In this document: in pieces, positions 1,429-52,028 of the stretch | How the letters are laid out: the number at the start of each line of letters is the position of its first letter | Position numbering within the stretch: position 1 is the stretch's first letter | DNA from: an uncultured bacterium | GTDB taxonomy: Bacteria > Bacillota_I > Bacilli_A > RFN20 > CAG-826 | NCBI GenBank assembly: GCA_949297445.1 | Contig: CASFSS010000018.1 | Location: 163,884 to 227,883, forward strand | DNA: 64,000 bases | Direction of reading: 5' to 3' | Position numbers and translations under genes: made by a program | Notes under the pieces: generated by a model | What the model was told of the DNA's origin: nothing | Databases searched by the model: none | What the model saw: only the letters and a program-made list of their open reading frames with translations

Positions 1429-1449
1429 TTGGTTGAAAGAGGTCATATT

Positions 1450-4063: not shown

Positions 4064-4145
4064 AAAGAGCGTTTGGGACTTCAAAAAAATAATTTAGGCA
4101 AAAAAATCAAATATTCAAAAACTAAGCATTTAGCAGCTAAAAAAT

Positions 4146-4179: not shown

Positions 4180-4218
4180 GTGTGGTAAAATATCCCCGAG
4201 TGATGAAATGAGTTTTTG

Positions 4219-7501: not shown

Positions 7502-7519
7502 TACGGAGGACATTAACAA

Positions 7520-12399: not shown

Positions 12400-12482
12400 G
12401 CGCCATCGCGACGGACGATTTATGAACCAGGTCAGGATAGGAATATAGCAGCCTTAAGTATTGAATTCGTGTGCGGTGGTTT
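12400..12482 (+). ncRNA. ffs: Small signal-recognition-particle RNA (4.5S/scRNA type)
   Basis: Domain IV consensus ACCAGGUCAGG..AGGAAUAUAGCAGCC at 12427-12452. The 5' GCCAUCGCGAC pairs with the 3' GUGUGCGGUGG to close the helix. A TGtTATAAT extended -10 lies at 12386-12394 and a U-tract follows at 12481-12486. In Bacillus the same RNA sits next to tadA. Confidence 0.6.
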
Positions 12483-12491
12483 TTTTAATGT

Positions 12492-25163: not shown

Positions 25164-25178
25164 GCGATGGAGGTAAAA

Positions 25179-25823
25179 ATGGACGAAAATGTTTCCAACC
25201 GACAACTTGAACGATATCCAATGTATCTTAGTCATTTATTGATGCTAAGTGAAGCCGGTGTCGTCAATATTAGCGCACCGACAATTGCGGCGGCATTGCA
25301 CCTTAACGTCGAGCAGGTTCGTAAAGATTTACAAGCTGTTTCTAGCAGCGAGGGCAAGCCAAAATTTGGTCGCAATGTTGAAGAGTTAATTGCCGATTTA
25401 AAGAAATTTTTAGGCTATAACGAAACGAACAAAGCAATCGTTGTTGGAGTCGGTCATCTGGGACAAGCATTTTTGAATTATTCCGGCTTTACTCGCTATG
25501 GATTAGATATTGTTATGGGTTTTGATATTGATCCTTTGATTGTCGGTAGCGAAATAAACGGGAAACCGATTTATTCACTCGATGAAATTGGTAAATATTT
25601 AGCCGATAGTGATATAAAAATTGCCGTTTTAACAACGCCACAAGGTGTGGCACAAGAAGTCAGCGATGTGCTGACAAAAAATGGCATCCGTGGAATTTGG
25701 AACTTTACTCCTATTCATCTCTCTCATCCTCTTAATGTGGTGGTTGAAGACATGAATTTAGCGAGTTCGCTTGCCAAATTTTCCCATCGTTTGCAGATTT
25801 TATTAAAAAAGGAGAAAAGCTAA
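25179..25823 (+). CDS. rex: Redox-sensing transcriptional repressor Rex
   Basis: N-terminal winged helix plus the Rossmann NADH-binding motif VVGVGHLGQAF. ATG at 25179 follows a GGAGG RBS. Confidence 0.85.
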   Translation: MDENVSNRQLERYPMYLSHLLMLSEAGVVNISAPTIAAALHLNVEQVRKDLQAVSSSEGKPKFGRNVEELIADLKKFLGYNETNKAIVVGVGHLGQAFLNYSGFTRYGLDIVMGFDIDPLIVGSEINGKPIYSLDEIGKYLADSDIKIAVLTTPQGVAQEVSDVLTKNGIRGIWNFTPIHLSHPLNVVVEDMNLASSLAKFSHRLQILLKKEKS

Positions 25824-28441
25824 TGCAAGGACAAATAGTTTCCATTGAAGCTTTTGAAGAAGTTGACAAGCTCGTAAGAAATGGGCAAAAAGCACTCAAT
25901 GAATTTTTGAAACTAAATCAAGAACAAGTCGACTATATTGTTGCAAAGTGTTCGGTTGCTGGTCTTGATCACCATGGGACTTTAGCCGCAATGGCAATTG
26001 AAGAAACGAAACGTGGTGTTTTTGAAGACAAAGCAACAAAAAACTTATTTGCGTGCGAATATGTTGTCAACAATATGCGTCACTTAAAAACAGTTGGTAT
26101 CATTAAAGATGATCCGGTAACTGGTATCACCGAGATTGCTGACCCAATGGGTGTTATCTGTGGAATTACGCCAGTCACCAATCCAACTAGTACCGTTATT
26201 TTTAAATGCTTAATTGCTTTAAAAACACGTAACCCAATTATTTTTTCATTCCATCCTAGCGCCCATGAATGTTCAAAGCGGGCCGCCCAAATTATGTTAG
26301 ATACAGCGGTGGCTGCTGGGGCACCAAAAAATTGTATTCAGTGGATTGAACAAATATCGATGGATGCGACGACCGCATTGATGAATCATACCGGTGTAGC
26401 GACAATTTTGGCTACTGGCGGAAATGCGATGGTTAAAGCTGCTTATAGTTGTGGCAAACCAGCAATGGGTGTCGGTGCTGGTAATGTTCCCGCCTACATT
26501 CATAAAAGCGCCAATGTTGAACAAGCAGTCAATGATATAGTTTCATCGAAATCGTTTGATAATGGTATGGTTTGTGCTTCTGAACAGGCAGCGATTATCG
26601 ACGAAGAAGTTTTTGATGAAGCCATCAATTTGTTTAAACGTTTCAAAGTTTATTTTGTTACACCAGCTGAAAAAACAAAGTTGGAAAAATATATGTTTGG
26701 TTACGCAAAAGGAGACCCAAACATTGAGTTATCACGCCTCAATCCAAAGATTGTTGGTATGTCAGCTCATTTTATTGCTGAACAAGCTGGTTTCTCGGTT
26801 CCTGAAGATACCTCTATTTTGGCTGTTCATTGTAAAACAGTCGGCATCGAAGAACCTTTGTCGCGAGAAAAATTGTCTCCTGTATTAGCAATTTATAAAG
26901 TTAAAGATGAAAAAGAAGGCTTTGACGTGGCCAGCAAATGTGTCGAATTCAATGGATTAGGACATAGTGCTGCTATCCACTGTAAAGAGCAATCTTTGGC
27001 CGACGCTTATGGCGAGCGCTGCAAAGCGATGCGAATTATTTGGAATTCGCCATCTACCTTTGGTGGCATTGGAAATATATATAATTCGTTCTTGCCAAGT
27101 ATGACATTAGGCTGTGGTAGTTATGGAAGAAACTCCATTGGCGGTAATGTCAGTGCAATCAATTTGTTAAATATTAAAAAGGTCGGTAAAAGGAGAAATA
27201 CTATGCAATGGTTTAAAGTACCACGCAAGATATATTTTGAACGCAACTCGATTCAATATTTACAATCTTGCCGCGACATCGAAAAAGTTTTTATTGTCAC
27301 CGATCGCTCGATGGTTGATTTCGGCTATGTTTCTCGTGTGACCGATCAATTAAATATGCGTCGTAACAAAGTTCAAATTCAATTGTTCTGTGATGTTGAG
27401 CCAGATCCAGATATTGAAACCGTTTTGCGCGGTGTTAAATTGATGGACGCATTCCGTCCCGATACAATTATTGCTATCGGCGGTGGTTCCCCAATGGATG
27501 CCGCAAAAGGAATGTGGTTATTCTATGAACATCCAGAAGTTAATTTTGATGATTTGAAACAAAAGTTTATGGATATTCGTAAACGAGCTTTCCGCTATCC
27601 TGAACTTGGTTTAAAATCTAAACTCATTTGTATACCGACAACATCTGGAACTGGTTCAGAAGTTACCCCGTTTGCGGTTATTTCCGACAAAAAGAACAAC
27701 AAGAAGTATCCGTTAACGGATTATTCATTAACACCAACAATTGCTATTGTTGACCCAGAGTTTGTTACCACTTTGCCAGCGCGCCCAACTGCTATTACTG
27801 GTATGGACGTCTTGACGCACGCGATTGAAGCGTATGTGTCTGTTTTGGCAAACGATTACACGGATGGATTAGCCCTTCAAGCAATCAAATTGGTTTTTGA
27901 ATATTTGCCTCGCGCGGTTAAAGATGGTCCACACGATTTAGAAGCACGCGAAAAAATGCATAATGCAGCAACGATTGCCGGTATGGCTTTTGCCAATGCG
28001 TTCTTAGGCATGGCTCACTCGTTAGCCCATAAAATTGGTGGTGAATTCCATACTGTTCATGGTTATACATGTTCCATCGTGTTGCCATATGTTATTCGTT
28101 ATAATGGCACTACCCCAACAAAATTATCTGTTTGGCCAAAATATAACGTTTATAAAGCAGATAAGAAGTATCAAGAAATTGCTAAATTGCTCGGCCTACC
28201 TGCCGCTACTCCCGCCGAAGGAGTAGAATCGCTAGCTAAAGCTGTTAAAAATTTAGCAATCGAAATTGGTCTTGAAACAAGCTTTGAGAAACTCGGTATC
28301 GATGAAAAAGAATGGAATTCTAAAATTGATACTGTGGCGGTCTTAGCTTATGAAGATCAATGTTCACCAGCAAATCCAAGAGTTCCTCTTGTTAAGGATA
28401 TGAAGGAAATTTTAAGAAAGGCTTATAAAGGTATTGATTAA
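25823..28441 (+). CDS. adhE: Bifunctional acetaldehyde-CoA/alcohol dehydrogenase
   Basis: 872 aa. The N-terminal ALDH domain has the catalytic Cys (VCASEQ) and the C-terminal domain is an Fe-ADH with GGGSPMDAAK. Start overlaps the rex stop. Confidence 0.95.
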   Translation: MQGQIVSIEAFEEVDKLVRNGQKALNEFLKLNQEQVDYIVAKCSVAGLDHHGTLAAMAIEETKRGVFEDKATKNLFACEYVVNNMRHLKTVGIIKDDPVTGITEIADPMGVICGITPVTNPTSTVIFKCLIALKTRNPIIFSFHPSAHECSKRAAQIMLDTAVAAGAPKNCIQWIEQISMDATTALMNHTGVATILATGGNAMVKAAYSCGKPAMGVGAGNVPAYIHKSANVEQAVNDIVSSKSFDNGMVCASEQAAIIDEEVFDEAINLFKRFKVYFVTPAEKTKLEKYMFGYAKGDPNIELSRLNPKIVGMSAHFIAEQAGFSVPEDTSILAVHCKTVGIEEPLSREKLSPVLAIYKVKDEKEGFDVASKCVEFNGLGHSAAIHCKEQSLADAYGERCKAMRIIWNSPSTFGGIGNIYNSFLPSMTLGCGSYGRNSIGGNVSAINLLNIKKVGKRRNTMQWFKVPRKIYFERNSIQYLQSCRDIEKVFIVTDRSMVDFGYVSRVTDQLNMRRNKVQIQLFCDVEPDPDIETVLRGVKLMDAFRPDTIIAIGGGSPMDAAKGMWLFYEHPEVNFDDLKQKFMDIRKRAFRYPELGLKSKLICIPTTSGTGSEVTPFAVISDKKNNKKYPLTDYSLTPTIAIVDPEFVTTLPARPTAITGMDVLTHAIEAYVSVLANDYTDGLALQAIKLVFEYLPRAVKDGPHDLEAREKMHNAATIAGMAFANAFLGMAHSLAHKIGGEFHTVHGYTCSIVLPYVIRYNGTTPTKLSVWPKYNVYKADKKYQEIAKLLGLPAATPAEGVESLAKAVKNLAIEIGLETSFEKLGIDEKEWNSKIDTVAVLAYEDQCSPANPRVPLVKDMKEILRKAYKGID

Positions 28442-28692
28442 TGACAGTATTAGTTTGTGTTGGTAGTTCTTGCCATTTAAAAGGAAGTTACGACATTATT
28501 GAATTGATGAAGGCGGCAATTGCCGCCCATCATCTCGAAGATAAAGTAACTCTCAAAGCAACATTTTGCCTCGGCAAATGTGCAATCAGCGGTGTCTGCA
28601 TTAAAGTTGATGATGATATCATCACTGGTGTGACAAAAAACAATTTTGAAGAAGTGTTCAAAACAAATATTCTCGACAAATTAAATTATTAA
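28441..28692 (+). CDS. Thioredoxin-like [2Fe-2S] ferredoxin (NuoE/HndA-like small protein)
   Basis: 83 aa with Cys pattern CVGSSCH...CLGKCAISGVC. It is translationally coupled to adhE (ATTAATG). Confidence 0.65.
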   Translation: MTVLVCVGSSCHLKGSYDIIELMKAAIAAHHLEDKVTLKATFCLGKCAISGVCIKVDDDIITGVTKNNFEEVFKTNILDKLNY

Positions 28693-28713
28693 TTTATTTA
28701 TAGGAGCCGTTTT

Positions 28714-30405
28714 ATGCCATACGCTTTAGAAAGTCGTAAAAATGATTGCCGCAACTGTTATAAATGTATTCGCGGTTGTCCAGTAAAATCGATATCATTT
28801 GGTGATAACAATCAAGCATCTATTATTCATGATGATTGCATTTTATGTGGTCATTGTTTTCTACTTTGTCCACAAGAATGTAAAGAAATTCGTGACGATA
28901 TTTCTAAAGCGAAAGCTCTTATTAAAAGCGGCAAAAAAGTTATTGTATCGCTCGCGCCAAGCTATGTTTCTGGCTACATTAATTGCTCTTTTGAAAACAT
29001 AAAAAAATCATTGCTTCAATTGGGCTTTTATGATGTCGAAGAAACAGCCATTGGCGCGACGATTGTCAAACAAATTTATGATGAAATGGTGGCAAAGGGT
29101 GATCGTGATGTTATTATTTCCACATGCTGCCATAGTGTAAATCTTTTGGTACAAAAGCATTATCCCGATTTGATACCTTGCTTAGCGGATGTTTTATCCC
29201 CTATGCTCGCTCATGCTCGTGATATTAAACTTCGCTACCCGGATTCATACGTCGTATTTATCGGACCTTGCATTGCTAAAAAAGACGAAGCTGACCAAGA
29301 CAAAAATCATTATGTCGATTGTGTCTTAACATACTTAGAACTTGATCGTTGGTTAAAAGAAGACGATATCGTTTTAGAAGAAGACGGCGGAACCAAAATG
29401 CTTGAAAAATCTAAAGCGCGCCTTTTTCCAACGACAGGTGGAATTTTAAACACAATGGAAAAGAATAGTCCCGACTATCAATATTTAGCTGTCGATGGGA
29501 CATTTAATGTCATGGCAGCTTTAGAAGATATTCGAGAAGGCAAGGTTCATAAATGTTTCATCGAAATGTCATCCTGCCCCGGCTCATGTATCAATGGTCC
29601 GGCAGTGGCCACAAGTGCTCGCTCGTTGCTAGCGGGTTATATAAAGGTACACAATGCTTCTGGAAAGCAAGATTTTTCCGTAACAAGCACAAAATATGAT
29701 GATATTGCGGTGAAATTTAGATCAACAGGCGTCTCGAAAGCGCGCCCAAGCGACCTTGACATTCAAAAAGAATTAGTCGATATGGGCAAATATACTAAAA
29801 AGGATGAACTTAATTGTGGTTCTTGTGGATATGACACATGTCGCGAAAAGGCAATTGCCATTTTGGAAGGCAAAGCCATCAAGGAAATGTGTCTACCATT
29901 CTTGATGCAAAAGGCACAAAGTTTCTCCGATAAAGTTATTTTTAATACCCCAAATGGTTTGATGGCTCTTGATGAGAATTTAAATATTCAATTAATTAAT
30001 CCGGCAATGCGACAAATTGTTGGCGTTGCCCATGCTCGTGAGGTAATTGGCAAGAATGTTTCGACCATTCTAGACCCTTCAATTTTTGCCATGGCTCTTA
30101 CAGGCGAAAAAATTCACGCTCGCCGTGATTATTTAAGTGAATACGATAAATACGTCGAAGAAACCGTTGTTTTTGACGAAAAATATCGCGTCTTAATTTC
30201 GATTTTTAGAGACGTAACTCAAGAGCAAAAGAAAATTTTGAAAAAAGAAGAAACGGTCAATAAATCAGTTGATATTACCAATGCTGTTATTGAAAAAAAT
30301 ATGCGTGTCGTTCAGGAAATAGCCTCGTTATTAGGCGAAAGTGCCGCCGAAACAAAAATCGCTCTTTCTTCACTCAAGGATACACTAAAAAATGATGGTG
30401 AGTAA
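28714..30405 (+). CDS. hydS: Putative sensory [FeFe]-hydrogenase with C-terminal PAS domain (HydS / HfsB-like, group C)
   Basis: Two N-terminal 4Fe-4S motifs (CRNCYKCIRGCP, CILCGHCFLLCP). H-cluster motifs are STCCHS (L1 variant), IGPCIAKKDE (L2) and EMSSCPGSCINGP (L3 with Met replaced by Ser, no GGGQP). An extra CGSCGYDTC motif and a PAS-like C-terminal ~130 aa follow. Confidence 0.8.
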   Translation: MPYALESRKNDCRNCYKCIRGCPVKSISFGDNNQASIIHDDCILCGHCFLLCPQECKEIRDDISKAKALIKSGKKVIVSLAPSYVSGYINCSFENIKKSLLQLGFYDVEETAIGATIVKQIYDEMVAKGDRDVIISTCCHSVNLLVQKHYPDLIPCLADVLSPMLAHARDIKLRYPDSYVVFIGPCIAKKDEADQDKNHYVDCVLTYLELDRWLKEDDIVLEEDGGTKMLEKSKARLFPTTGGILNTMEKNSPDYQYLAVDGTFNVMAALEDIREGKVHKCFIEMSSCPGSCINGPAVATSARSLLAGYIKVHNASGKQDFSVTSTKYDDIAVKFRSTGVSKARPSDLDIQKELVDMGKYTKKDELNCGSCGYDTCREKAIAILEGKAIKEMCLPFLMQKAQSFSDKVIFNTPNGLMALDENLNIQLINPAMRQIVGVAHAREVIGKNVSTILDPSIFAMALTGEKIHARRDYLSEYDKYVEETVVFDEKYRVLISIFRDVTQEQKKILKKEETVNKSVDITNAVIEKNMRVVQEIASLLGESAAETKIALSSLKDTLKNDGE

Positions 30406-31573
30406 TCTTATCACGGAAGTTGGCTATCTATCAATCAATCACGACGGTGAAGAACTTTGTGGTGATCATGTTCAACTAATAAACAATAAACAATCGCGGA
30501 CAACCACTCTCGTTTTAGCCGACGGGTTAGGTAGCGGAGTCAAAGCAAATATTTTGAGTACTTTGACGAGCGAAATTCTTTCGACGATGATTGCGAACAA
30601 TTTGCCAATCGATGAGTGTGTTAAAACAATCATGGAAACGTTACCAGTTTGTAAAGTTCGTGGCGTTGCTTATTCCACTTTCACCATTATTCATATATTA
30701 GATTCGCGACAAGCAATAATTTATAATTACGATAATCCACAACCATTTTTAATTAGAAATGGTAAATATCGTCCTCTTGACTGGAGTTCACAAATCATCG
30801 ATGAAAAAACCATCTCTTTTGCCTCTATTTATTTAGTTGAGGGAGACACTTTCTTCTTAATGTCCGATGGCGTCATTCACGCCGGCATTGGAGCGACTTT
30901 GAATTTTGGTTGGGATATTATGAGTGTGATTGACTATGCCGAAGGGCTATTCGACGAAAAATATTCAGCCAAATCGCTCGCGACTTATTTAATTAGTCAC
31001 GTAAATGATTTATACAATGGTCATCCTGGGGATGATGCGACTGTGGCCGCCATCAAAATTCGTCCGCGCAAGCAGGTAAATTTAATGATTGGTCCAGCCT
31101 CGAACCGCGAAGATGATGAAAAAATGCTCTCGCTATTTTTCGCTAAAGAAGGCAAACACATCGTTTGCGGTGGCACTACTTCTCATGTGGTTGCCAATTA
31201 CTTAAAAAAAGAACTCGAATTCCCCCTTGATTATATTGATAAAGAAATACCGCCGACGGCCAAAATTGAGGGTGTGGATTTAGTGACAGAAGGTGTCATC
31301 ACAATCAATAAAGTTTTGCAATACGCCGACAATGTATTCAAGGACAATAGTGATTATTTTACTTGGTCGTTTAAGCAGGATGGAGCCTCACAAATTGCTC
31401 GCCTTTTATTTGAAGAAGCCACCGACATTAACTTTTTTGTCGGTTGTGCGATTAACCCTGCCCACCAACAAGATGGCATTCCAATCAATTTCAATACAAA
31501 AATGCAATTGGTGGATGAATTATCTAAAGCCTTAAAAAAGATGAACAAAAGCATTAAAGTAAGTTATTTTTAA
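30392..31573 (+). CDS. PP2C/SpoIIE-type serine phosphatase with uncharacterised C-terminal domain (HfsC-like)
   Basis: LVLADGLGSGVKANILS and FLMSDGV are PP2C metal-binding Asp motifs. Start overlaps the hydS stop, and the C-terminal ~160 aa has no recognisable motif. Confidence 0.7.
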   Translation: MMVSNLITEVGYLSINHDGEELCGDHVQLINNKQSRTTTLVLADGLGSGVKANILSTLTSEILSTMIANNLPIDECVKTIMETLPVCKVRGVAYSTFTIIHILDSRQAIIYNYDNPQPFLIRNGKYRPLDWSSQIIDEKTISFASIYLVEGDTFFLMSDGVIHAGIGATLNFGWDIMSVIDYAEGLFDEKYSAKSLATYLISHVNDLYNGHPGDDATVAAIKIRPRKQVNLMIGPASNREDDEKMLSLFFAKEGKHIVCGGTTSHVVANYLKKELEFPLDYIDKEIPPTAKIEGVDLVTEGVITINKVLQYADNVFKDNSDYFTWSFKQDGASQIARLLFEEATDINFFVGCAINPAHQQDGIPINFNTKMQLVDELSKALKKMNKSIKVSYF

Positions 31574-31586
31574 TGGAGACAAATTT

Positions 31587-33047
31587 ATGGTAAGCGAAGA
31601 AATTAAAGCAAAATTTGACACGCGTGTACAAGAATTAAAATATCGCGTGCTAAAAGAGGTTGCCCGCTCGTATTTTAATGGTACTTTAATTCAAGATTAT
31701 TCAACTATTCCTGAAAAAATCTCCCCCGGTCCGAAAGCGACGATGCGTTGCTGCATCTATAAAGAGCGCGCCATCGTTTTAGAAAGAATGAAATTAGCTA
31801 CCGGTGGCGATCGAACAAGAAATAATGTCGTACAGGTTTTAAAAATAGCTTGTGATGAATGCCCGTTAGGTGGTTATGAGGTAACTCGCAACTGTCGTGG
31901 TTGTATCGCCCATCGCTGCGAAAAAGCATGCTTTAAAAAAGCCATTACTTTTGATCCGGTTACTCACGCGGCTATCATTGACAAAACAAAATGTGTAAAT
32001 TGCGGGATGTGCGCTAAAGCGTGCCAATATAATGCAATCAATAATTATCGACGTCCTTGCGAAGTTGCCTGCAAGATGAACGCCATTAGTCACGATGAAA
32101 ATTTCGCGGCAGAAATTGATGACGAAAAGTGCATTCAATGTGGACAATGTGTCTATCAATGTCCATTTGGAGCAATTATGGATGTTTCTTATATTACCGA
32201 TGTTATTGACATGCTTAAAGACAGCGATTTTTCAAAAAAATATCATGTTTATGCCGTCATCGCCCCTTCCATTTCTTCACAGTTTAAATATGCGACGCTT
32301 GGTCAAATTATCAAAGCGATTGAAGTGTTAGGTTTTCATAATGTAGTCGAAGCCGCTTTAGGCGCCGATATGGTCGCTTATAAGGAAGCCAAAGAGCTGT
32401 CGGAAAAAGGTTTCTTATTATCGAGTTGTTGTCCGTCTTTTGTATCTTTTGTTGAGAAAAAATTTCCTAAGTTAAAAGAAAGCATTTCAGAGAATTTATC
32501 GCCGATGGCGACAATTGCTCAATATATTAAATCCGTTGACCCAACTGCTAAAGTTGTTTTTATTGGTCCTTGTGTAGCTAAAAAACAAGAGATCAAACGT
32601 CCGAAAGTTGGCGAATATATTGATAGTGTTTTGACCTTTGAGGAATTACAAGCCTTGATTGATGCTAGAGAAATCGATGCCTCTAAATTAGAAGAGTCTA
32701 GTTTGGATAACGCTTCATATTTTGGTCGCATTTTCGCTAGAAGTGGTGGCTTGCATGACGCCGTTAATGAAGCACTTAAAGAACAACATCTTGACTTTAA
32801 TTTGAATGCCGGTGTCGGCGACGGTTTTGACTTATGTCGTCAATTATTATTAAAATGCAATACAGACACTAAACCATTTAATTTTATCGAGGGTATGATT
32901 TGTAGTAACGGCTGCATTGGTGGCCCATGCTGCTTGACGCATGAAGTACGCGATAAAAGTGAAGTGGATAAATATGGCAACGAAGCCAAAGAAAAGACCA
33001 TCGAAGACGCTATCAAATATGTCTATAACGTCACTTCCACTCATTGA
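31587..33047 (+). CDS. hydA: [FeFe]-hydrogenase catalytic subunit (monomeric, ferredoxin-domain N-terminus)
   Basis: H-cluster motifs SSCCPSF (L1), IGPCVAKKQE (L2) and EGMICSNGCIGGPCC (L3). N-terminal Cys clusters are CVNCGMCAKAC and CIQCGQCVYQCP plus extra Cys. Confidence 0.85.
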   Translation: MVSEEIKAKFDTRVQELKYRVLKEVARSYFNGTLIQDYSTIPEKISPGPKATMRCCIYKERAIVLERMKLATGGDRTRNNVVQVLKIACDECPLGGYEVTRNCRGCIAHRCEKACFKKAITFDPVTHAAIIDKTKCVNCGMCAKACQYNAINNYRRPCEVACKMNAISHDENFAAEIDDEKCIQCGQCVYQCPFGAIMDVSYITDVIDMLKDSDFSKKYHVYAVIAPSISSQFKYATLGQIIKAIEVLGFHNVVEAALGADMVAYKEAKELSEKGFLLSSCCPSFVSFVEKKFPKLKESISENLSPMATIAQYIKSVDPTAKVVFIGPCVAKKQEIKRPKVGEYIDSVLTFEELQALIDAREIDASKLEESSLDNASYFGRIFARSGGLHDAVNEALKEQHLDFNLNAGVGDGFDLCRQLLLKCNTDTKPFNFIEGMICSNGCIGGPCCLTHEVRDKSEVDKYGNEAKEKTIEDAIKYVYNVTSTH

Positions 33048-34204
33048 TTTAAGTAATAAAAGTATAAATACATTTTTTGATATCTAGAGAAAGATTCTAT
33101 TGTATAGTTGATTGTTCCATCAGGATTTTCGCTCGCGCTAATATCGATATTATCTTGATACGAAGAGGTGCCATCATTACCAAAAACATACAAATATAGA
33201 TTGTTGAAAAAATTGCCCACTCGCTCGAATAAATTGTGTGACTCCCAAAAATAATAGCGATAGGCATTGTCTTTTATTATTTTAGGATTTAAGTTTGCGA
33301 CAAACTCTTGATAACATTCATAACCGCCATACGCTAAAGGGAAAATATTTAGACTACTAAAAGTCCACATGAAAGCGGAATATTTTAAAAATGGATCATC
33401 GCTATTTAATAAAACATAAAATGCCAACAAATTGGCATCTTCTTCGCGCATCACCCCTTTTATATGCGCGATTTCGTGGGCGGCCACAAAAGGAAGTTCG
33501 CTTGATGTCATTTTATAATTTAAATTTGCCTCCGATAGTGGAGCAAAAGAAACGCCGGTGATTCCTAATTCTACATAAAGGTATTGAAGTAAGAAAAACT
33601 TTTTAGTGTTCGGCGTGAACTCGCTAAAATAGTCGGAATCTAATTTCGCATATTCTTCTTTTAAGACGGCATTTAATTCATCTAAGGAATAAGGAGCAAT
33701 TAAAGCACCCGAGTCTTCATCAAATGTCAATTGTTCAGCTGTCTTATTGTATTCATCTAAAAAATAGTTCGCGATATCCATGTATTCATTTTCTGAAACC
33801 GTTCCTTCATATGAAGGAATATCTAATGGATAACGGTTATATTGCATACCAGCCGTCATCGCGTATAATAGGCTCGTAATTGCAACAAAATAAGCTGGTA
33901 TGAGCCAAAATTTAGAAGAAAATCTGAGACCTACTTTATACAAGTGTCTTATAAGAAACACGAGCCAAACGATAACGCCAATTACTAAAAGGTATATTAC
34001 AATTTCGAAAATAGAAAAAGGCAAGGCGGAGGTTAGAGTGCCAATAGCTACTTGATAATATCTAGCAACTGTTCTTGACCAATATTCAGCGATGGTAGAG
34101 TTGTATTTTAAACAAGAAACAACTATTAAAATAGCGATTAAAAAAATTAATATGCTTAACGCTACCCAAAAATGCTTTTTATATCTCACCATTTTTAATT
34201 TCAA
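33041..34204 (-). CDS. DUF3810-like membrane protein with HExxH zinc-metalloprotease motif
   Basis: N-terminal TM helices followed by an extracellular domain carrying VAAHEIAHIKG. Its stop codon overlaps the hydA stop, so the two genes converge by 7 nt. Confidence 0.55.
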   Translation of the reverse strand: MKLKMVRYKKHFWVALSILIFLIAILIVVSCLKYNSTIAEYWSRTVARYYQVAIGTLTSALPFSIFEIVIYLLVIGVIVWLVFLIRHLYKVGLRFSSKFWLIPAYFVAITSLLYAMTAGMQYNRYPLDIPSYEGTVSENEYMDIANYFLDEYNKTAEQLTFDEDSGALIAPYSLDELNAVLKEEYAKLDSDYFSEFTPNTKKFFLLQYLYVELGITGVSFAPLSEANLNYKMTSSELPFVAAHEIAHIKGVMREEDANLLAFYVLLNSDDPFLKYSAFMWTFSSLNIFPLAYGGYECYQEFVANLNPKIIKDNAYRYYFWESHNLFERVGNFFNNLYLYVFGNDGTSSYQDNIDISASENPDGTINYTIESFSRYQKMYLYFYYLNQ

Positions 34205-36969: not shown

Positions 36970-39585
36970 ATGAAAAAGTCGCAACGTAAAACACCATATT
37001 TTGATGCCTTAAAAAAATATTTGTCAGTCGAAGTTTCTCCTTTTGATGTGCCAGGACATCATATGGGTAATGTCCCGAACAAATTAAAAACATTAGTTGG
37101 TGAAAATGTTTTTCGTGCGGACGTCAACGCTCCTATCGGCATGGACAATTTAGCCGCTCCTCGCGGCCCGCTTTTAGAGGCACAACGATTGATGGCGGAT
37201 TTTTGTGGAGCGAGTCGGGCTTTTTTCTTAATTAACGGCACAACTTCGGGCATCATTGCGATGATAATGACTGCTTGTCGAGCTAACGACCGAATTATTT
37301 TGCCACGCAACGTTCATAAATCAATTATTAATGCTTTGGTTTTAAGTGGAGCCATTCCGACTTATATTATGCCCCGCTTAGATTCTGAATTAGAGATTGC
37401 CAATCAACCATCGGTAGATGATTACGTTAGGGCAATGAATCGTTATCCGTCCGCTAAAGCTATTTTTGTTATTAATCCAACTTATTTTGGTTCCGTTATT
37501 GATTTGAAGCAATTGGTAGAAATTGCTCACGCACGAGGAATCGCGGTTTTGGTAGATGAAGCGCATGGCGCCCATTATTATTTCAACAAAAATGGTCCGC
37601 TATCAGCTATGGAATGTGGAGCGGATATGTCTAGTGTTTCCTTCCATAAGACAGGTGGCAGTTTGACTCAATCGAGCGTGTTATTATTAAACGAGGGTAT
37701 TTTCTCGCGCCGAGAAATACAAAAAACATTAAATATATTAAATACAACTTCACCTAATACATTGTTGCTTGCTAGTTTAGACACCGCTCGTGAATATGTG
37801 GCTATGCATGGCCAAGCAAACATGAATCGCGTTTTTGAATTAAGTGATTTTGCGAGAGAACAAATTGATAAAATTAAAGGCTTTAAAACAGTTGGCAAAG
37901 ACCATTTTGTAAAATACGGTTCTTACGATTATGACAAAACAAAACTAGTAATCGCGTTAGAACACCTCGACATAAACGGTTTTGAATTATATAAGTTTTT
38001 AAAAGTCGATTATAACATTCAAGTGGAACTAGCCGAGACCTATGTCATTATGGCCATTTTAGCAATCGGTACAAAGAAAAAGCATATTTTAGCTTTAATA
38101 AAAGCGTTAAAAGATATTTCTAGAAAACATTATAAAAAAAGCAATGTTCGCGATGAACATTCGTTTGGAATTGATTTCCCATATATGCTTATGCGACCTC
38201 GTTTGGCCTATCACGCCGATGGGAAAAAAGTGCCATTAGAGAAAGCCGTTAATGAAATTGCTAAAGAGCAATTGATGATTTATCCACCGGGAATACCGCT
38301 AATTGTTCCTGGCGAGGTTTTCACTAAGGAATTAGTGGATCGCATTAAAACATATAAGAAGATGAACGGAACTATATTGAGCGATTATAAAAATGCTGAC
38401 AATGTCAGCGTGATTGACCGTGACAAATGGCAACAATTCCATTTGTTTAAAAACAAACTCAATGACTATTTGATTAAAAAGATTACCACGCCACGAGGCG
38501 ATGATTATGTGATGCCTTTTGAAGGCGAGGCGCACGAAGGAACAATTATTTTACTTCCCTTCCGAAAAGACACCTGGCGAGAAAATGCTAAGCTGGCTCA
38601 AAACGCTTATCGACAAGTTATTATGGCCATCGCTAAATATGAAAAAGTATATGTCGGCATTCATCCCTCAATTTATAATTCCTTGATTGATAGCTATAAA
38701 GATGTTGACAACATCGTTCCTATCAAAATTCGTTATAACGACGCTTGGGCGCGCGACAATTGTCCTATTTTTGTCATCAACAAGGAGAACAAGATGCGTG
38801 CGGTCGATTTTCGCTTTAATGCATGGGGCGGCGAAGTAGATGGTTTATATAACAATTACAAAGAAGACGATTTGATCGCTAAGGCAATGGCAAAATATTT
38901 TGGTGTAGAAAGATATTATTTAGAAAACTTTGTCTTAGAAGGTGGCAGCATCCATGTCGATGGCAAAGGTACTTGTTTGGTGACGGAGGCATGCCTATTG
39001 TCAAACGGTCGTAACCCGCATTTAAACAAATTGCAAATAGAAGAAACCTTAAAAATTTATCTAAATGTTTCTAAAGTTATTTGGTTAAAACACGGTATCT
39101 ATTTAGACGAGACAAACGAGCATGTAGATAATATCGCTTGCTTTGTTCGTCCTGGCGTAATTGCTCTAGCCTGGACAAACGATAAAAATGATCCACAATA
39201 TGAATATTCCCTCTCTTGTTACAACATTTTGAAAAAAGAGCATGATGCGGAAGGCAATCCTTTTAAAATAGTAAAAATTATTAACCCCGAGCCAATATAT
39301 ACGAACAAAGAAGACACGAAAGGAATTCAAGCTGGTCGCTACTCGGCTGTGCCGCGCTTAGTAGGCTCACGCTTAGCGGCTAGTTACATAAATTTCTATC
39401 AAGGTGAAAAGTTTGTCATTATGCCTGGTTTTGGTGTAAAAGAAGATGGTCCGGCCTTAAAAAGAATGAAACGACTATTTCCTGAAAAGGATGTCATCCA
39501 AATCAATTCGCGTGAAATTTTATTAGGCGGTGGAAACATTCATTGCATCACTATGCAAGTGCCTAAAACTCATAAAGGAGAATAA
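36970..39585 (+). CDS. Fused arginine decarboxylase (Orn/Lys/Arg decarboxylase, PLP fold-I, Bacillus SpeA type) and agmatine deiminase
   Basis: Residues 1 to ~490 match Bacillus-type SpeA (FDVPGHHMG...PRNVHKS..SFHKTGGSL). Residues ~510-871 match agmatine deiminase (MPFEGEAHEGT...WARDNCPIFV...GGGNIHCITMQ with catalytic Cys). It is one uninterrupted ORF of 871 aa. Confidence 0.85.
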   Translation: MKKSQRKTPYFDALKKYLSVEVSPFDVPGHHMGNVPNKLKTLVGENVFRADVNAPIGMDNLAAPRGPLLEAQRLMADFCGASRAFFLINGTTSGIIAMIMTACRANDRIILPRNVHKSIINALVLSGAIPTYIMPRLDSELEIANQPSVDDYVRAMNRYPSAKAIFVINPTYFGSVIDLKQLVEIAHARGIAVLVDEAHGAHYYFNKNGPLSAMECGADMSSVSFHKTGGSLTQSSVLLLNEGIFSRREIQKTLNILNTTSPNTLLLASLDTAREYVAMHGQANMNRVFELSDFAREQIDKIKGFKTVGKDHFVKYGSYDYDKTKLVIALEHLDINGFELYKFLKVDYNIQVELAETYVIMAILAIGTKKKHILALIKALKDISRKHYKKSNVRDEHSFGIDFPYMLMRPRLAYHADGKKVPLEKAVNEIAKEQLMIYPPGIPLIVPGEVFTKELVDRIKTYKKMNGTILSDYKNADNVSVIDRDKWQQFHLFKNKLNDYLIKKITTPRGDDYVMPFEGEAHEGTIILLPFRKDTWRENAKLAQNAYRQVIMAIAKYEKVYVGIHPSIYNSLIDSYKDVDNIVPIKIRYNDAWARDNCPIFVINKENKMRAVDFRFNAWGGEVDGLYNNYKEDDLIAKAMAKYFGVERYYLENFVLEGGSIHVDGKGTCLVTEACLLSNGRNPHLNKLQIEETLKIYLNVSKVIWLKHGIYLDETNEHVDNIACFVRPGVIALAWTNDKNDPQYEYSLSCYNILKKEHDAEGNPFKIVKIINPEPIYTNKEDTKGIQAGRYSAVPRLVGSRLAASYINFYQGEKFVIMPGFGVKEDGPALKRMKRLFPEKDVIQINSREILLGGGNIHCITMQVPKTHKGE

Positions 39586-39587
39586 GT

Positions 39588-40454
39588 ATGTCAGTTAAAG
39601 TTGCGATTACACAAATGAGTTGTTCAGCCAATATTCAAGCCAATATCCACAAAGCAATTTCGCTCGTTGAAAAGGCAGCGAAAGAGGGCGCAAACATTAT
39701 TTTGTTACAAGAGTTATTTTCTTCTTTATATTTTTGTCAAGTTGAAGACTATAATAATTTCTCTTTAGCGGAAAACAAAAATGATTCAGCTTTAATAAAA
39801 ACTTTTCAAGAAGTAGCCAAAAAATATAATGTTGTTTTGCCAATTTCCTTTTTTGAAAAAAGCGGAGCTAATTATTTTAATTCCTTAGTTATGATAGATG
39901 CCGATGGAACCAATTTAGGTTTATATCGAAAGATGCATATTCCTACGGGGCAATGCTACGAAGAAAAGTTTTATTTTTCTCCTGGTGATACCGGCTATAA
40001 GATTTTTAAAACTAAATTCGGTAAAATTGGAGTTGGCATTTGCTGGGACCAATGGTTTCCCGAAGTGGCTAGAATTCTCGCTTTAAAAGGCGCGGAATTG
40101 CTTGTCTATCCGACCGCTATCGGCAGTGAACCAGTGTTGGTTAAAGATTCGATGATTCATTGGCGAAACACCATGTGTGGTCATGCTGCCGCTAATATCA
40201 TTCCTCTTTTAGCCTCTAATCGGGTTGGTGTAGAAAGTGTCGCTGGTTCAACCATGACTTTTGGTGGCTATTCTTTTATTGCCAATCAATATGGCGAAGT
40301 TGTGAAAGAATTGTCGAGAGTCGAAGAAGGGTATGCCATATACGAATTTGATTTAGATAGCATCGATAAAGATCGTATTTATTGGGGAGTATTTCGAGAT
40401 AGGCGAATCGATAGTTATTCACCTCTTCTAGAGTATGGAAACGAAGACGAATAA
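39588..40454 (+). CDS. aguB: N-carbamoylputrescine amidohydrolase (nitrilase superfamily)
   Basis: CN-hydrolase catalytic triad context (E in ILLQELF, K in RKMHIP, C in GVGICWDQWFPE). It lies immediately downstream of the deiminase fusion. Confidence 0.85.
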   Translation: MSVKVAITQMSCSANIQANIHKAISLVEKAAKEGANIILLQELFSSLYFCQVEDYNNFSLAENKNDSALIKTFQEVAKKYNVVLPISFFEKSGANYFNSLVMIDADGTNLGLYRKMHIPTGQCYEEKFYFSPGDTGYKIFKTKFGKIGVGICWDQWFPEVARILALKGAELLVYPTAIGSEPVLVKDSMIHWRNTMCGHAAANIIPLLASNRVGVESVAGSTMTFGGYSFIANQYGEVVKELSRVEEGYAIYEFDLDSIDKDRIYWGVFRDRRIDSYSPLLEYGNEDE

Positions 40455-42324: not shown

Positions 42325-43857
42325 ATGGTTTTAGAATGGGTTAAAAAATTAAAAGACGCTGCACTATCTACGTTACCAGTTATCATTGTAGTGATAGTCG
42401 TTTTTTTGGTTGATCGTTTTTTATTAAATCAATCGTTAACGAACAATGACATTATTCTTTTTGCTGTCTCAGCTGTTTTATTGACTATTGGTATGTGGCT
42501 ATTCACCATCGGGGCTGAAGCCTCAACCACTAAACTAGGTGAATATGTAGGCTCAACTTTGACGAAGAGAAAAAGCATGCTTCTTTTAGTCATAATCATC
42601 TTTTTGGTAGGCATATTAATTACTGTTGCGGAACCCGATTTATCCGCTTTATCTAATCAGGTGCCCATCAATAGTTATGTATTAATTTTTACCATTGGAG
42701 TTGGCACCGGTTTATTTTTAGTAGTCGGTGCCATTCGTATCATTTTTCAAAAAAGTTTGAAGGTATGGTTATTAGCTTTTTATGGCTTGCTTTTTGCCGT
42801 TGCTTGTCTACTAGATTCGCAATATATTCCGATATCGTTTGATAGTGGAGGCGTTACAACCGGTCCTATCACTGTGCCTTTCATTTTAGCCCTCGGCGTA
42901 GGTATTGCCACTAGCCGTGGCGGTAATAAGACTAACTCCGACTCATTCGGCTTAGTTGCCTTTGCAAGTGTTGGTCCAATAATAATGGTCATGATTTTAT
43001 CGCTAATTTTGCAAGGTTCGGGGCAAGATTTGACCATGTCGACTTCAGAAACTACCGACAATATTTGGCTCTTGCTTAAAGATGGTTTTGTTGACGCTAG
43101 TATCAATGTTTTGATTTCCTTATCGCCACTAGCGATATTCTTTTTAATCTTTAATTTCATCTTCATAAAATTGCCAAGAAAGACTTTGATAAAAATATTA
43201 GTCGCTTTGATTTATACCTACGTTGGATTAGTTTTGTTCCTTGGCTCGGTCGAAGCTGGCTTTATGAATATGGGTACTCAATTAGGAATAATTTTAGGTG
43301 CAGATAGTTCGATGCTATGGCTACTTCTTGTGATAGGCGCTACGCTAGGTGTTGCCGCCATATTTGCCGAACCAGCAGTTCATATTCTTACTGAACAAGT
43401 TGAAGAGGTGGGCGACGGCGTCATTCATAAAAGTGTCGTATTGATTGCTTTAGCAGTCGGTAATGGCTTGGCAATTGTGCTTGCTTTGCTACGCATCATT
43501 TATCAATTTCCCCTTTTATATTATTTAGTTCCTGGCTATATTTTGGCCTTTTTGTTGTCCTTCTTGGTTCCTGATATTTATAGTGCCATTGCATTTGATA
43601 GTGGAGGCGTTGTTTCCGGACCAATGAACTCAACCTTTTTAGTTCCTTTTGCTACAGGCGTTGCCACGGCTATTTCGTTGACCGATGGAGCAATTATGGA
43701 ATACGCTTTCGGCATGATTGCTTTAGTGGCGTTAATGCCTTTGATCTCAATCCAATTAGTCGGTCTATCGGCCGTGCTTAAAAGGCGCGCCGAACTTCAT
43801 ATTGCGCGAACAAGAGTGCGAGAAGAATTCGACAATCAAATTATTCATTTTGAATGA
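42325..43857 (+). CDS. DUF1538-type polytopic membrane protein with internal tandem duplication
   Basis: Two homologous halves each carry FDSGGV(T/V)(T/S)GP. An identical 18-nt string TTTGATAGTGGAGGCGTT occurs at 42839 and 43593. There are about 12 TM helices. Confidence 0.6.
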   Translation: MVLEWVKKLKDAALSTLPVIIVVIVVFLVDRFLLNQSLTNNDIILFAVSAVLLTIGMWLFTIGAEASTTKLGEYVGSTLTKRKSMLLLVIIIFLVGILITVAEPDLSALSNQVPINSYVLIFTIGVGTGLFLVVGAIRIIFQKSLKVWLLAFYGLLFAVACLLDSQYIPISFDSGGVTTGPITVPFILALGVGIATSRGGNKTNSDSFGLVAFASVGPIIMVMILSLILQGSGQDLTMSTSETTDNIWLLLKDGFVDASINVLISLSPLAIFFLIFNFIFIKLPRKTLIKILVALIYTYVGLVLFLGSVEAGFMNMGTQLGIILGADSSMLWLLLVIGATLGVAAIFAEPAVHILTEQVEEVGDGVIHKSVVLIALAVGNGLAIVLALLRIIYQFPLLYYLVPGYILAFLLSFLVPDIYSAIAFDSGGVVSGPMNSTFLVPFATGVATAISLTDGAIMEYAFGMIALVALMPLISIQLVGLSAVLKRRAELHIARTRVREEFDNQIIHFE

Positions 43858-43868
43858 GGTATCATTTA

Positions 43869-44348
43869 ATGGCTGAAAAGAAAGAAAAGGAAAAAATAAC
43901 CACTCGTCTTAAGAAGAAAGTACAAGCGATTAGTGGAAAAAAGGAAGAGTTAGAGTCAGCGCTCGCTCCCTCTTTTGAAGATAGCCATCACATATCACCT
44001 TTAAAATTGTTTGTCATCATTGTTCCTTATGGTCAAGCTGGCGCAATTATTAAGCGATTAGAATCGATGGAGGCCTCTTCTTCTTTTATTATTTCTGCAC
44101 AAGGCACAGGTTCAAAAGATATCTATGATGTAATCGGTCTTAGCGATACTAAAAAACAAGTGATTTTATCGGTTCTCAAAGAAGAAAATGTTCCTGAGTT
44201 TAAACGTTTATTAGAAGAGCGTTTTTCAATTTCTAGGGCAGCAAAAGGAATTGCTTTTTCAATTAAAATAACCTCTTTAGTGGGTGTTACCATCTATAAA
44301 TTTTTATCAAATACGCAAGTGGTGAGGGAGAAAAAGAAAAATGGTTGA
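43869..44348 (+). CDS. PII (GlnB)-like small regulatory protein, paralog 1, with N-terminal Lys-rich extension
   Basis: ATG at 43869 follows a GAGGT RBS. The C-terminal ferredoxin-like PII fold region has a GIAFS motif. It is coupled to the DUF1538 gene. Confidence 0.5.
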   Translation: MAEKKEKEKITTRLKKKVQAISGKKEELESALAPSFEDSHHISPLKLFVIIVPYGQAGAIIKRLESMEASSSFIISAQGTGSKDIYDVIGLSDTKKQVILSVLKEENVPEFKRLLEERFSISRAAKGIAFSIKITSLVGVTIYKFLSNTQVVREKKKNG

Positions 44349-44697
44349 AACAAAAGATGAAATTAAAGCAACTATAAATAACGAAAACGCTGAATTGGTT
44401 TTGGTTATTGTCAACAACGGATTTGCGGATTTAGTGATGGAGGCCGCCAAGCGTAAAGGCGCGCGAGGGGGAACAATTTTACACGCTAGAGGTACTGGAA
44501 ACAAAGAGATGGAAAAGTTTTTTGGTATCTCAATTTCTCCTGAAAAAGAAATTGTTTTAATCTTAGTGAAAAAAGATCAAAAAGATGAAATTCTTAGCGA
44601 AATATATAAAGATGCTGGATTAGATACTAACGGGCAAGGAATTGCCTTTTCTTTGCCGGTGAGCGATGTCGTTGGCGCCACATTAGGCGATAATTAA
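44341..44697 (+). CDS. PII (GlnB)-like small regulatory protein, paralog 2
   Basis: 118 aa. LVLVIVNNG...KRKGARGGTILHARGTG...GIAFS resembles the PII-like proteins that pair with DUF1538. Start overlaps the paralog 1 stop. Confidence 0.55.
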   Translation: MVETKDEIKATINNENAELVLVIVNNGFADLVMEAAKRKGARGGTILHARGTGNKEMEKFFGISISPEKEIVLILVKKDQKDEILSEIYKDAGLDTNGQGIAFSLPVSDVVGATLGDN

Positions 44698-44718
44698 TTT
44701 TTCTACTTTGTCACACAT

Positions 44719-50494: not shown

Positions 50495-51109
50495 TTATAA
50501 TACGCTTTCAACAATTTTGTATGTGTCTTCAATAACCTCATTTAATGATTTAGTTGCGTCTACTAGTCGATATCTATTTGGATATTTTTTCGCTAATTCA
50601 AGAAAAGTTTCGTGGACTTTGCGGTGAAATTCGAGTTTTTCTAAATCTAAACGGTTGACTTCGCGACTAGAATTTTTAGCGATTCGTTCAAGCCCTAGTT
50701 CTGGTTCAATGTCAAAATAAAGAGTTAAATCAGGAAAGAATCCTTCCGTTGCGTGCATGTTGATATCTAATATTTTTTGGATACCAATTCCGCGCCCACC
50801 CCCTTGGTACGCTAATGAAGAATCTAAGAAGCGATCCGATAAAACGATTGTTCCTTTTTCAATTGCTGGCCATACTTTTTCCACCAAGTGTTGTCTTCGG
50901 CTAGCGGCATATAACAGTGCCTCGGTAATACAATCCATGTTGGTATTTTTTCTATCTAAAATGACATTACGTATTTCTTCAGCGATTGGCGTACCGCCAG
51001 GTTCTCGTGTCAAAATAACATCTTTGCCTTCTTTTAAAAGGCGATTATAAATTTCTTTTGCAACGGTGGATTTGCCACTACCCTCTGGACCTTCAAAAGT
51101 AATGAACAT
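50495..51109 (-). CDS. tmk: Thymidylate kinase
   Basis: P-loop FEGPEGSGKST and the DRF motif. Confidence 0.95.
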   Translation of the reverse strand: MFITFEGPEGSGKSTVAKEIYNRLLKEGKDVILTREPGGTPIAEEIRNVILDRKNTNMDCITEALLYAASRRQHLVEKVWPAIEKGTIVLSDRFLDSSLAYQGGGRGIGIQKILDINMHATEGFFPDLTLYFDIEPELGLERIAKNSSREVNRLDLEKLEFHRKVHETFLELAKKYPNRYRLVDATKSLNEVIEDTYKIVESVL

Positions 51110-51112
51110 AAA

Positions 51113-51724
51113 TTATTCCTCCTCGATTTTGTTGCGACCTTCAATGGCTTTTGCTAACGTCAATGAATCGGCATACTCTAATGTGCCGCCCATAGGAAGA
51201 CCATATGCTAAACGTGTTATTTTTATATTATACGGTTGTAACAATTTAGCAATATAAATAGCGGTAATATCACCTTCAATAGTTGGGTTCATCGCCAAAA
51301 TGACTTCTTCGACGCCATTTTCTTCAATACGTTTTTGTAAAGACACAAAATTTAAATCTTCGATATTGATTCCTTGAATCGGTGAAATTACCCCATGGAG
51401 GACATGATAAGTAGCATCGAGAGTTTTTAATTTTTCAAATGGTATAACATCGCGCGGATAAGAAACAACAATAATTTTTTGCTTATTACGTGTGTTATCT
51501 CGACATATGTCGCACACATCGTCATTTTCGGTATAAAGTCCACATACATTGCAGCGATGGATTTTATTTTTTACATCTAGCAAGGCATCCGAAAACGTTT
51601 TAACAAATTCGTTGTCTTCATCTAGTATTGCATAAGCCATACGCTCGGCAGATTTGCTACCTATTCCCGGAAGACGTTTAAAACATTCGGTTAATTTTTG
51701 TAAAGACTTTAGATTTTCTTCCAT
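51113..51724 (-). CDS. recR: Recombination protein RecR
   Basis: HhH motif LPGIGSKSAERMA, a C4 zinc finger (CNVCG..CDIC) and a Toprim domain. Confidence 0.95.
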   Translation of the reverse strand: MEENLKSLQKLTECFKRLPGIGSKSAERMAYAILDEDNEFVKTFSDALLDVKNKIHRCNVCGLYTENDDVCDICRDNTRNKQKIIVVSYPRDVIPFEKLKTLDATYHVLHGVISPIQGINIEDLNFVSLQKRIEENGVEEVILAMNPTIEGDITAIYIAKLLQPYNIKITRLAYGLPMGGTLEYADSLTLAKAIEGRNKIEEE

Positions 51725-52023
51725 TAGAATAGACCGCCTGCTCTACCTGTTATGCGTTCTTGCAAAGCATTCTCTTTGTTTTTAATTTCGACAAGACCTT
51801 CGTTGATGGCCATGGCAATCATTTCCTCAACCATCTCTTTATTTTCTTTTTCGAAAGCATCATCATCGATATGGACGGCTTTAATAGTTTTATCGCCAAG
51901 TATTGTTACGGTGATAGCCCCACCTTTACTAATTACAAATTCTTCTTTGGCCAATTCATCCATAGCTTTTCTTAATTCGCGTTGCATTTTTTGTGCTTGC
52001 ATCATCATTTGTTGAATGTTCAT
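51724..52023 (-). CDS. ybaB: Nucleoid-associated protein YbaB/EbfC
   Basis: 99 aa with MMQAQKMQ and a GLF C-terminus. It lies between dnaX and recR. Confidence 0.9.
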   Translation of the reverse strand: MNIQQMMMQAQKMQRELRKAMDELAKEEFVISKGGAITVTILGDKTIKAVHIDDDAFEKENKEMVEEMIAMAINEGLVEIKNKENALQERITGRAGGLF

Positions 52024-52028
52024 ATTTA

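Follow-up and report, generated by a model that had tools for sequence, protein, structure and literature searches.

A single gene joining a putative arginine decarboxylase to agmatine deiminase in uncultured gut Bacilli

Do some uncultured gut bacteria encode the first two steps from arginine to putrescine in one gene, and would the product then act as a bifunctional enzyme? The question arises from a 64,000-nucleotide (nt) stretch of contig CASFSS010000018.1 (assembly GCA_949297445.1), hereafter the window, in which an open reading frame (ORF) of 871 amino acids (aa) joins a decarboxylase dependent on pyridoxal 5'-phosphate (PLP) to an agmatine deiminase (AguA, also called agmatine iminohydrolase, AIH) and is followed directly by aguB, the gene for N-carbamoylputrescine amidase. 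Both enzymes, AguB and the arginine-to-putrescine pathway are textbook knowledge. We consider it likely that the ORF encodes a bifunctional fused enzyme that would convert arginine to N-carbamoylputrescine, with AguB completing the formation of putrescine. The features on which this reading is built are as follows.

36970-39585, plus strand: fusion gene (decarboxylase, linker and agmatine deiminase); one uninterrupted ORF, 871 aa plus stop
36970-38427, plus strand: decarboxylase N-terminal domain, aa 1-486; wing-less Orn/Lys/Arg decarboxylase of the aspartate aminotransferase (AAT) fold, putative arginine decarboxylase (ADC); PLP lysine K227, codon 37648-37650
38428-38505, plus strand: linker, aa 487-512, 26 aa, WQQFHLFKNKLNDYLIKKITTPRGDD; predicted helical, with helices at 488-492 and 494-501
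38506-39582, plus strand: AguA/AIH C-terminal domain, aa 513-871; TIGR03380, PF04371; catalytic D596 (WARD), H718, D720 and C859 (GGGNIHC, codon 39544-39546)
39577-39580, plus strand: GGAG Shine-Dalgarno-like element for aguB, read from the sequence; within the last codons of the fusion gene, 7 nt before the ATG
39588-40454, plus strand: aguB, N-carbamoylputrescine amidase, 288 aa; PF00795, 3.4e-55; motifs LLQELF, YRKMHIP and GICWDQWFPE

The fusion gene and its two halves

A first-pass annotation of this DNA had described the ORF as a PLP decarboxylase fused to a complete agmatine deiminase, and its coordinates, length, domain order and GGGNIHCITMQ motif (aa 853-863) were all recovered when the ORF was read again and searched against Pfam and NCBIfam. 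Pfam places PF01276 (OKR_DC_1) at aa 8-371 (2.3e-67), PF03711 (OKR_DC_1_C) at aa 398-461 and PF04371 (PAD_porph) at aa 515-865 (7.6e-105) of the one protein, which ends at a TAA at 39583-85. The fused architecture likewise stands on Pfam, on TIGR03380 and on every one of the 80 relatives described below.

An ORF of this kind could arise if an assembly or sequencing artefact, through a lost stop codon or a frameshift, had joined adjacent speA and aguA genes, and the first-pass annotation had named the junction as the place to look for such an error. None was found: contigs assembled independently from several samples, 17 in all, encode the identical 871-aa protein, with neighbours that match those in the window. 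When one genome per GTDB species was scanned, 149 had a relative, and in all of the best 80, which were inspected (52-76% identity), both halves lie within one ORF of about 866-885 aa. Nor does the junction align as an intergenic gap in relatives, as it would if the halves were normally separate genes; among 79 aligned fusion proteins, the set used for all conservation figures given here, the segment spanning it (aa 480-520) is exactly 41 aa long in 79 of 79, and W487 is invariant. In a collection of 5.8 billion proteins, at least 120 clusters at 90% identity have the dual architecture, and the 120 best matches are all of about 875 aa with both Pfam domains. An artefact is excluded by the independent contigs and the uniformly single ORFs, and we assign it a negligible probability; the fusion is genuine.

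The fusion had also been called uncommon, and this needs to be divided. It is uncommon across bacteria generally, but within the uncultured gut lineage that carries it, represented by the 149 GTDB species genomes and at least 120 clusters, it is the rule. At the 50% identity of a representative library the whole family is reduced to essentially one or two entries. The nearest stand-alone decarboxylase among 1.84 billion representatives is 47% identical to the N-terminal half, and the nearest stand-alone AguA is 51% identical to the C-terminal half.

The two halves evolve as one unit and at the same rate. Mean pairwise identity is 0.616 for the N-terminal half and 0.610 for the C-terminal half, and the pairwise identities of the two correlate closely (r = 0.89); these matching distances argue against later domain swapping. 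An AlphaFold2 (AF2) model of the fusion protein has a mean predicted local distance difference test score (pLDDT) of 90.7 and a predicted template-modelling (TM) score of 0.72, and a Foldseek search with it found no PDB chain spanning both domains.

The C-terminal half passes the equivalog-level agmatine deiminase model TIGR03380 with 439.5 bits against a cutoff of 381.8 (aa 506-866, model positions 1-357 of 357). It matches Arabidopsis AIH (1vkp, 3.6e-96), with D596, H718, D720 and C859 aligned to D94, H224, D226 and C366, and these four residues are invariant in the 79 relatives. The AF2 C-domain has the pentein (alpha/beta-propeller) fold, with target TM scores of 0.94-0.96 and a root-mean-square deviation (rmsd) of 1.4 A to 1vkp and 3h7c by Foldseek; over the solved plant and bacterial agmatine deiminases the ranges are 0.93-0.96 and 1.3-2.0 A. 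On these grounds it is predicted to be a fully competent agmatine deiminase. Stand-alone AguA/AIH enzymes (plant 1vkp and 3h7c, Medicago 6nib, S. mutans 2ewo, E. faecalis 2jer) resemble it at 41-44% identity, at TM scores within the range just given and in the same Asp/His/Asp/Cys set, and the nearest of all stand-alone AguA proteins (P0134) is also followed by aguB, in the same aguA-aguB order as at the fusion locus. They differ in having a start codon of their own, whereas the AguA of the fusion has none and is made as the C-terminal part of the polypeptide that begins with the decarboxylase.

Whether a separate AguA might be made from an internal translation start was considered and rejected. 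Residue 515 is Leu, Met, Val or Phe, with Met in only 25 of the 79 sequences, so that no start codon is conserved there, and Shine-Dalgarno-like sequences precede it in 2 of those 25 against a background of 11%. The AguA half is thus produced within the long polypeptide. The junction itself is modelled with pLDDT of 81-91, as two short helices rather than a disordered tether.

Directly behind the fusion gene, as the first-pass annotation had it, comes aguB, which would complete the gene set from arginine through agmatine and N-carbamoylputrescine to putrescine. Its ATG lies at 39588, 3 nt after the fusion stop, and it is found directly downstream in all 78 relatives whose loci extend far enough. 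The product aligns over essentially the full length of TIGR03381 and matches Medicago N-carbamoylputrescine amidohydrolase (NCPAH; 5h8i, 4.2e-92), with the ELF, YRK and CWDQWFPE segments that carry the Glu-Lys-Cys residues of the nitrilase superfamily aligned.

Substrate of the decarboxylase half and the proposed pathway

The decarboxylase half, of about 486 aa, comprises OKR_DC_1 and OKR_DC_1_C and has no REC wing, PF01276 already beginning at residue 8. Among PDB entries it matches 2x3l best and then LdcC and AdiA, in keeping with the group III decarboxylases. The PLP motif S224-F-H226-K227 aligns with SFHKT of 2x3l, and S224, D196, H199, H226 and K227 are invariant. The ancestral-form (wing-less AAT-fold) family to which it belongs comprises ADC, ornithine decarboxylase (ODC), lysine decarboxylase (LDC) and non-polyamine YaaO-type members (Li et al. 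2021, PMC8503589), and membership leaves several substrates to choose from.

In a neighbour-joining tree (simple distance, 85 sequences, few characterised references) the fusion N-domains are monophyletic in 100 of 100 bootstraps; the fusion has a single origin. They fall in a clade of at most 20 taxa with uncharacterised decarboxylases, and both the B. subtilis-group SpeA (P0361) and the Fusobacterium aODC type lie outside it (99 of 100 bootstraps). One stand-alone decarboxylase of this clade (P0126) has an Arginase/agmatinase-family ORF next downstream, and the next neighbours in the tree, P0128 from a Mycoplasmatota genome and the P0132 cluster, are in speD-decarboxylase-speE-speB operons. 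That the nearest stand-alone relatives lie beside agmatinase genes points to arginine specificity. From the fusion to AguA, the linkage to aguB and the context of the relatives, the N-terminal half is very probably an arginine decarboxylase.

A YaaO-type paralogue was ruled out by position, together with phylogeny and gene context. In B. subtilis, S. aureus and many Firmicutes a yaaO-type decarboxylase lies upstream of tmk, whereas in the window, where the order is dnaX-recR-tmk-holB (50495-53861, minus strand), recR precedes tmk instead and no yaaO-type decarboxylase is found there.

One relative bears on how the two halves depend on each other.

L082 5001-7592 (ENA ERZ27245259): P0122, a sister form of the fusion with a degenerate AguA domain

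P0122 nests within the fusion clade of the N-domain tree, and its N-terminal half is about 61% identical to that in the window. In its AguA half NASE stands in place of WARD and MKSNLSE in place of GGGNIHC, the His and Asp are gone, and PAD_porph scores only 28.8 bits; no aguB ORF lies in the 237 nt left on the contig behind it. The AguA domain and aguB were thus lost together, which fits AguA and AguB acting together. The AguA domain of P0122 appears to be a pseudo-enzyme domain that persists after loss of the pathway, and its retention hints at a structural role.

The enzyme would work in the following way. The PLP-dependent N-domain would decarboxylate L-arginine to agmatine and CO2; the C-domain, by thiouronium chemistry at Cys859 as in the solved AIHs, would convert agmatine to N-carbamoylputrescine and NH3; and the translationally coupled AguB would release putrescine, CO2 and NH3. 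Fusion may be advantageous in a very small genome by ensuring strict 1:1 co-expression of the two enzymes, with fixed stoichiometry, and it may also remove agmatine beside the decarboxylase and so relieve product inhibition. The latter is plausible because strong inhibition by the product formed from the preferred substrate is reported for these decarboxylases (Li et al. 2021, PMC8503589). The architecture, the intact catalytic residues of both halves, their conservation, the single origin and the link to aguB are shown directly; arginine specificity and the activity of both domains are inferred, and direct channelling of agmatine between the halves is a hypothesis. The fusion is an ancient one that arose once, in the simplest history by the joining of a speA-type gene to the head of an aguA-aguB operon, and its product has been inherited as a unit from then on. 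A more elaborate version, which we put forward as doubtful, is that the AguA domain and the rigid linker build a higher-order assembly of dimeric decarboxylase and oligomeric deiminase, in which agmatine would pass between sites and inhibition would be relieved, and in which the AguA domain may be structurally required by the decarboxylase, like the REC 'wing' of extended forms. A structural need of this kind would explain why P0122 has kept the domain after losing its catalytic residues and aguB.

Several results weigh against arginine as the substrate, or against a complete polyamine pathway, and need to be considered together. The N-domain is 40% identical to P0361 (a B. subtilis-group entry named arginine decarboxylase, 98% identical to the B. 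subtilis SpeA query that was used for retrieval only) and 37% identical to the Fusobacterium aODC type (a 782-aa family), a difference that is not discriminating, and sequence alone cannot fix the substrate. Gene context was informative for only three of the five nearest stand-alone relatives, and context has misled elsewhere: in C. botulinum, whose genome encodes AIH and NCPAH, the decarboxylase is nevertheless an ODC, and in L. ferrooxidans it is an LDC that is encoded beside speD and speE (Li et al. 2021, PMC8503589). The aguB product scores 409.1 bits against the TIGR03381 cutoff of 410.25, about 1 bit short, at coverage 1-278 of 279, and neither speD nor speE, nor any carboxyspermidine or pot gene, was found in the 64-kb window. 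If the N-terminal half were an ODC or LDC, the protein would unite two routes that reach diamines in parallel, one leading from ornithine directly to putrescine and the other processing scavenged external agmatine by means of AguA and AguB, rather than two consecutive steps. Ancestral-form decarboxylases do switch specificity easily (PMC8503589), C. botulinum has its ODC alongside AIH and NCPAH, the family member that carries a fused arginase-like domain in Fusobacterium is an ODC, and the low identities to both references suit such a reading. We nevertheless consider it improbable, as the Fusobacterium aODC type falls outside the N-domain clade (99-100 of 100 bootstraps) while the fusion groups with agmatinase-adjacent decarboxylases, the fusion to an intact agmatine-specific enzyme has been kept across about 150 species with equal constraint on the halves, and the decayed AguA domain of P0122 coincides with an absent aguB. 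Moreover, ADC activity alone has so far been found in the class Bacilli (Li et al. 2021, PMC8503589). It is less probable again, to the point of being very unlikely, that one domain is a non-catalytic scaffold for folding or oligomerisation; the Fusobacterium fusion of ODC to a dead arginase and P0122, with its AguA Cys, His and Asp lost, are precedents, but neither domain shows a change at any catalytic residue, in the window or across the 79 aligned relatives, and the AguA half passes an equivalog-level model and is modelled at 1.4 A from a solved AIH.

A different kind of alternative concerns the role of the pathway rather than its chemistry. The fused enzyme and AguB might serve arginine-driven pH or nitrogen homeostasis, or putrescine export, instead of polyamine supply, with acid buffering or community feeding as the benefit to a gut organism of reduced genome. 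Decarboxylation consumes a proton and the two hydrolytic steps release two NH3; the hosts are fermentative gut and rumen bacteria, with AdhE and [FeFe]-hydrogenases encoded nearby in the window; and speD, speE and carboxyspermidine genes were found neither in the window nor within 6 kb of the fusion in the 80 relatives, and speB and pot genes were likewise found in neither (flanks of at most 6 kb, shorter where a contig ends). Against this, no arginine/agmatine or putrescine antiporter is adjacent, and the classical energy-yielding agmatine deiminase system employs putrescine carbamoyltransferase and carbamate kinase rather than AguB. We think this role unlikely, though not to the degree of a decarboxylase of other specificity, and it is compatible with the same enzyme mechanism. 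Conversion of arginine to putrescine by the fusion protein and AguB therefore stays our preferred reading.

Operon surroundings and host lineage

Around the fusion gene lie aguB and genes for an alpha/beta hydrolase, a patatin-like lipase and a pseudouridine synthase. Between 39588 and 42247, aguB, the patatin-like phospholipase gene (with DUF6363) and the RluA-family pseudouridine synthase gene overlap by 20 nt and 8 nt, respectively, and no terminator-like site was seen on the plus strand between the three. Unrelated housekeeping genes may therefore share a transcript with the putrescine genes, as one would expect where the genome is compact. A scan for promoters and terminators over 35.2-44.8 kb gave counts equal to the shuffled expectation, and Rfam and tRNA scans of the window detected no riboswitch or leader upstream of the fusion operon. 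Neither putrescine carbamoyltransferase, carbamate kinase nor an agmatine/putrescine antiporter is encoded adjacent to the fusion or among the window ORFs that were scanned, and a catabolic agmatine deiminase operon was ruled out on this basis.

All fusion-bearing relatives are uncultured metagenome-assembled genomes from faeces, gut and rumen, labelled Bacilli, Bacillales, Bacillota, "uncultured Mollicutes", Ca. Fiminaster, Ca. Alloenteromonas or Ca. Enteromonas. The last of these corresponds to GTDB genus UBA733 of order RFN20, family CAG-826 (PMC8035907); the RFN20-type lineage is described as genome-reduced, and CAG-826 and CAG-288 as peptidoglycan-deficient (PMC10868615). One relative (L075) is a complete chromosome of 1.06 Mb. 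The fusion lineage is thus one of uncultured, genome-reduced gut and rumen Bacilli that includes GTDB order RFN20. Some species-representative 'cleanbin' bins among L023-L072 are titled Escherichia coli, Bacteroides uniformis, Faecalibacterium prausnitzii, Alistipes communis or the like; these are evidently mislabelled and give no evidence of horizontal spread.

Elsewhere in the window, the chromosomal origin region dnaA-dnaN-recF-gyrB-gyrA occupies 1429-10096, and the fusion operon, which shares its strand with most genes, lies only about 35 kb away from dnaA. The Rfam and tRNA scans found only a bacterial small signal recognition particle RNA, at 12400-12485. A fermentation and redox cluster at 25167-33047 encodes a Rex-like regulator (CoA_binding and Put_DNA-bind_N), the 872-aa bifunctional AdhE and two proteins of [FeFe]-hydrogenase type. 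The first of these two, hydrogenase-like and 563 aa long, has an additional Fe-S domain and is followed directly by a SpoIIE/PP2C phosphatase, an arrangement that resembles a regulatory pair of sensory hydrogenase and phosphatase; the second, an [FeFe]-hydrogenase of 486 aa, comes after the phosphatase. The region 42325-44700 encodes a 510-aa DUF1538 membrane protein and, behind it, small ORFs that include one for a P-II family protein according to the annotation of an identical contig (L095), and these two could form a transporter and regulatory pair. The DUF3810 gene is intact (383-387 aa) in the window (33041-34204) and on two other contigs, and is split into ORFs of 136 and 231 aa in a strain with the identical fusion protein (L096, 6073-7224), through either strain-level pseudogenisation or a sequencing error.

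Significance and relation to known systems

Bacterial putrescine is a major source of luminal polyamines in the gut, and the fusion defines a putrescine route in a large branch of gut and rumen Bacilli (RFN20-type) that is uncultured and of reduced genome. Public annotation gives such proteins a single function, "agmatine deiminase" only at NCBI and "arginine decarboxylase" in one JGI record, and pathway reconstructions would consequently score these genomes as short of one enzyme. As a natural two-step fusion the protein offers a means of probing substrate channelling and relief of product inhibition, and together with aguB it is a compact one-gene module for engineered conversion of arginine to putrescine.

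A second type of decarboxylase-AguA fusion was found, in which an Orn/Arg decarboxylase of the alanine-racemase (AR) fold (PF02784/PF00278) precedes a complete AguA in a protein of about 1050 aa. It forms six clusters (P0183, P0333-P0337), which are encoded on long prokaryotic contigs as follows.

L092 1793-4948: AR-fold decarboxylase-AguA fusion
L093 1893-5048: AR-fold decarboxylase-AguA fusion
L094 5001-8156: AR-fold decarboxylase-AguA fusion

Here too a basic-amino-acid decarboxylase is N-terminal to a complete AguA, but the decarboxylase fold is non-homologous, the type is rare, and the next gene encodes a GNAT acetyltransferase, not aguB. Because the two are non-homologous, decarboxylase-AguA fusion arose at least twice, which suggests the same selective logic behind both. 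A fusion of consecutive polyamine steps has accordingly arisen twice from non-homologous decarboxylases, and in one lineage, that of P0122, the second domain has decayed to an apparent pseudo-enzyme.

Other architectures involving either domain were seen in the representative library. P0167 (556 aa) joins 5-formyltetrahydrofolate cyclo-ligase to AguA, and in P0232 (754 aa) AguA is preceded by some 400 N-terminal aa to which no domain was assigned. P0145 and P0267 (about 735 aa) combine an NNMT/PNMT-like methyltransferase with OKR_DC_1, P0256 a small multidrug-export domain with the decarboxylase, and P0261, at 2469 aa, has the decarboxylase at 127-601.

A full-text literature search, which left most subscription journals uncovered, found no description of a decarboxylase-agmatine deiminase fusion. 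Polyamine gene fusions are already known, however, and this one is a further variant that is no surprise in principle; we regard it as well worth documenting and of moderate interest. Of the stand-alone enzymes, the closest in kind is the B. subtilis SpeA type (Li et al. 2021, PMC8503589), which shares with the N-terminal half its fold, PF01276 and PF03711 without a REC wing, the S-x-H-K motif, a length of about 490 aa and the identity of 40% noted above. The fusion differs from it by a C-terminal extension of 385 aa that is a complete second enzyme, and its N-domains differ from their stand-alone relatives in forming a clade of their own, at no more than 47% identity to any among the 1.84 billion representatives. 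The Fusobacterium fusion of aODC to an arginase/agmatinase-like domain (783 aa; Li et al. 2021, PMC8503589) is built alike, with the same decarboxylase family carrying a C-terminal domain from arginine or polyamine metabolism. Its decarboxylase is an ODC, members from F. nucleatum having been characterised, and its ureohydrolase domain lacks the Mn ligands and was judged inactive (Li et al. 2021, PMC8503589), whereas the partner in the window is of the unrelated pentein/PAD_porph fold, has its catalytic residues intact and is predicted to catalyse the next step of the pathway. Finally, a fused aguA-aguB gene in a Ca. Diapherotrites (DPANN) archaeon (Li et al. 2023, PMC10407285) likewise joins consecutive steps of the agmatine-to-putrescine branch; it joins steps two and three, whereas the fusion in the window would join steps one and two and leaves aguB as a separate gene.

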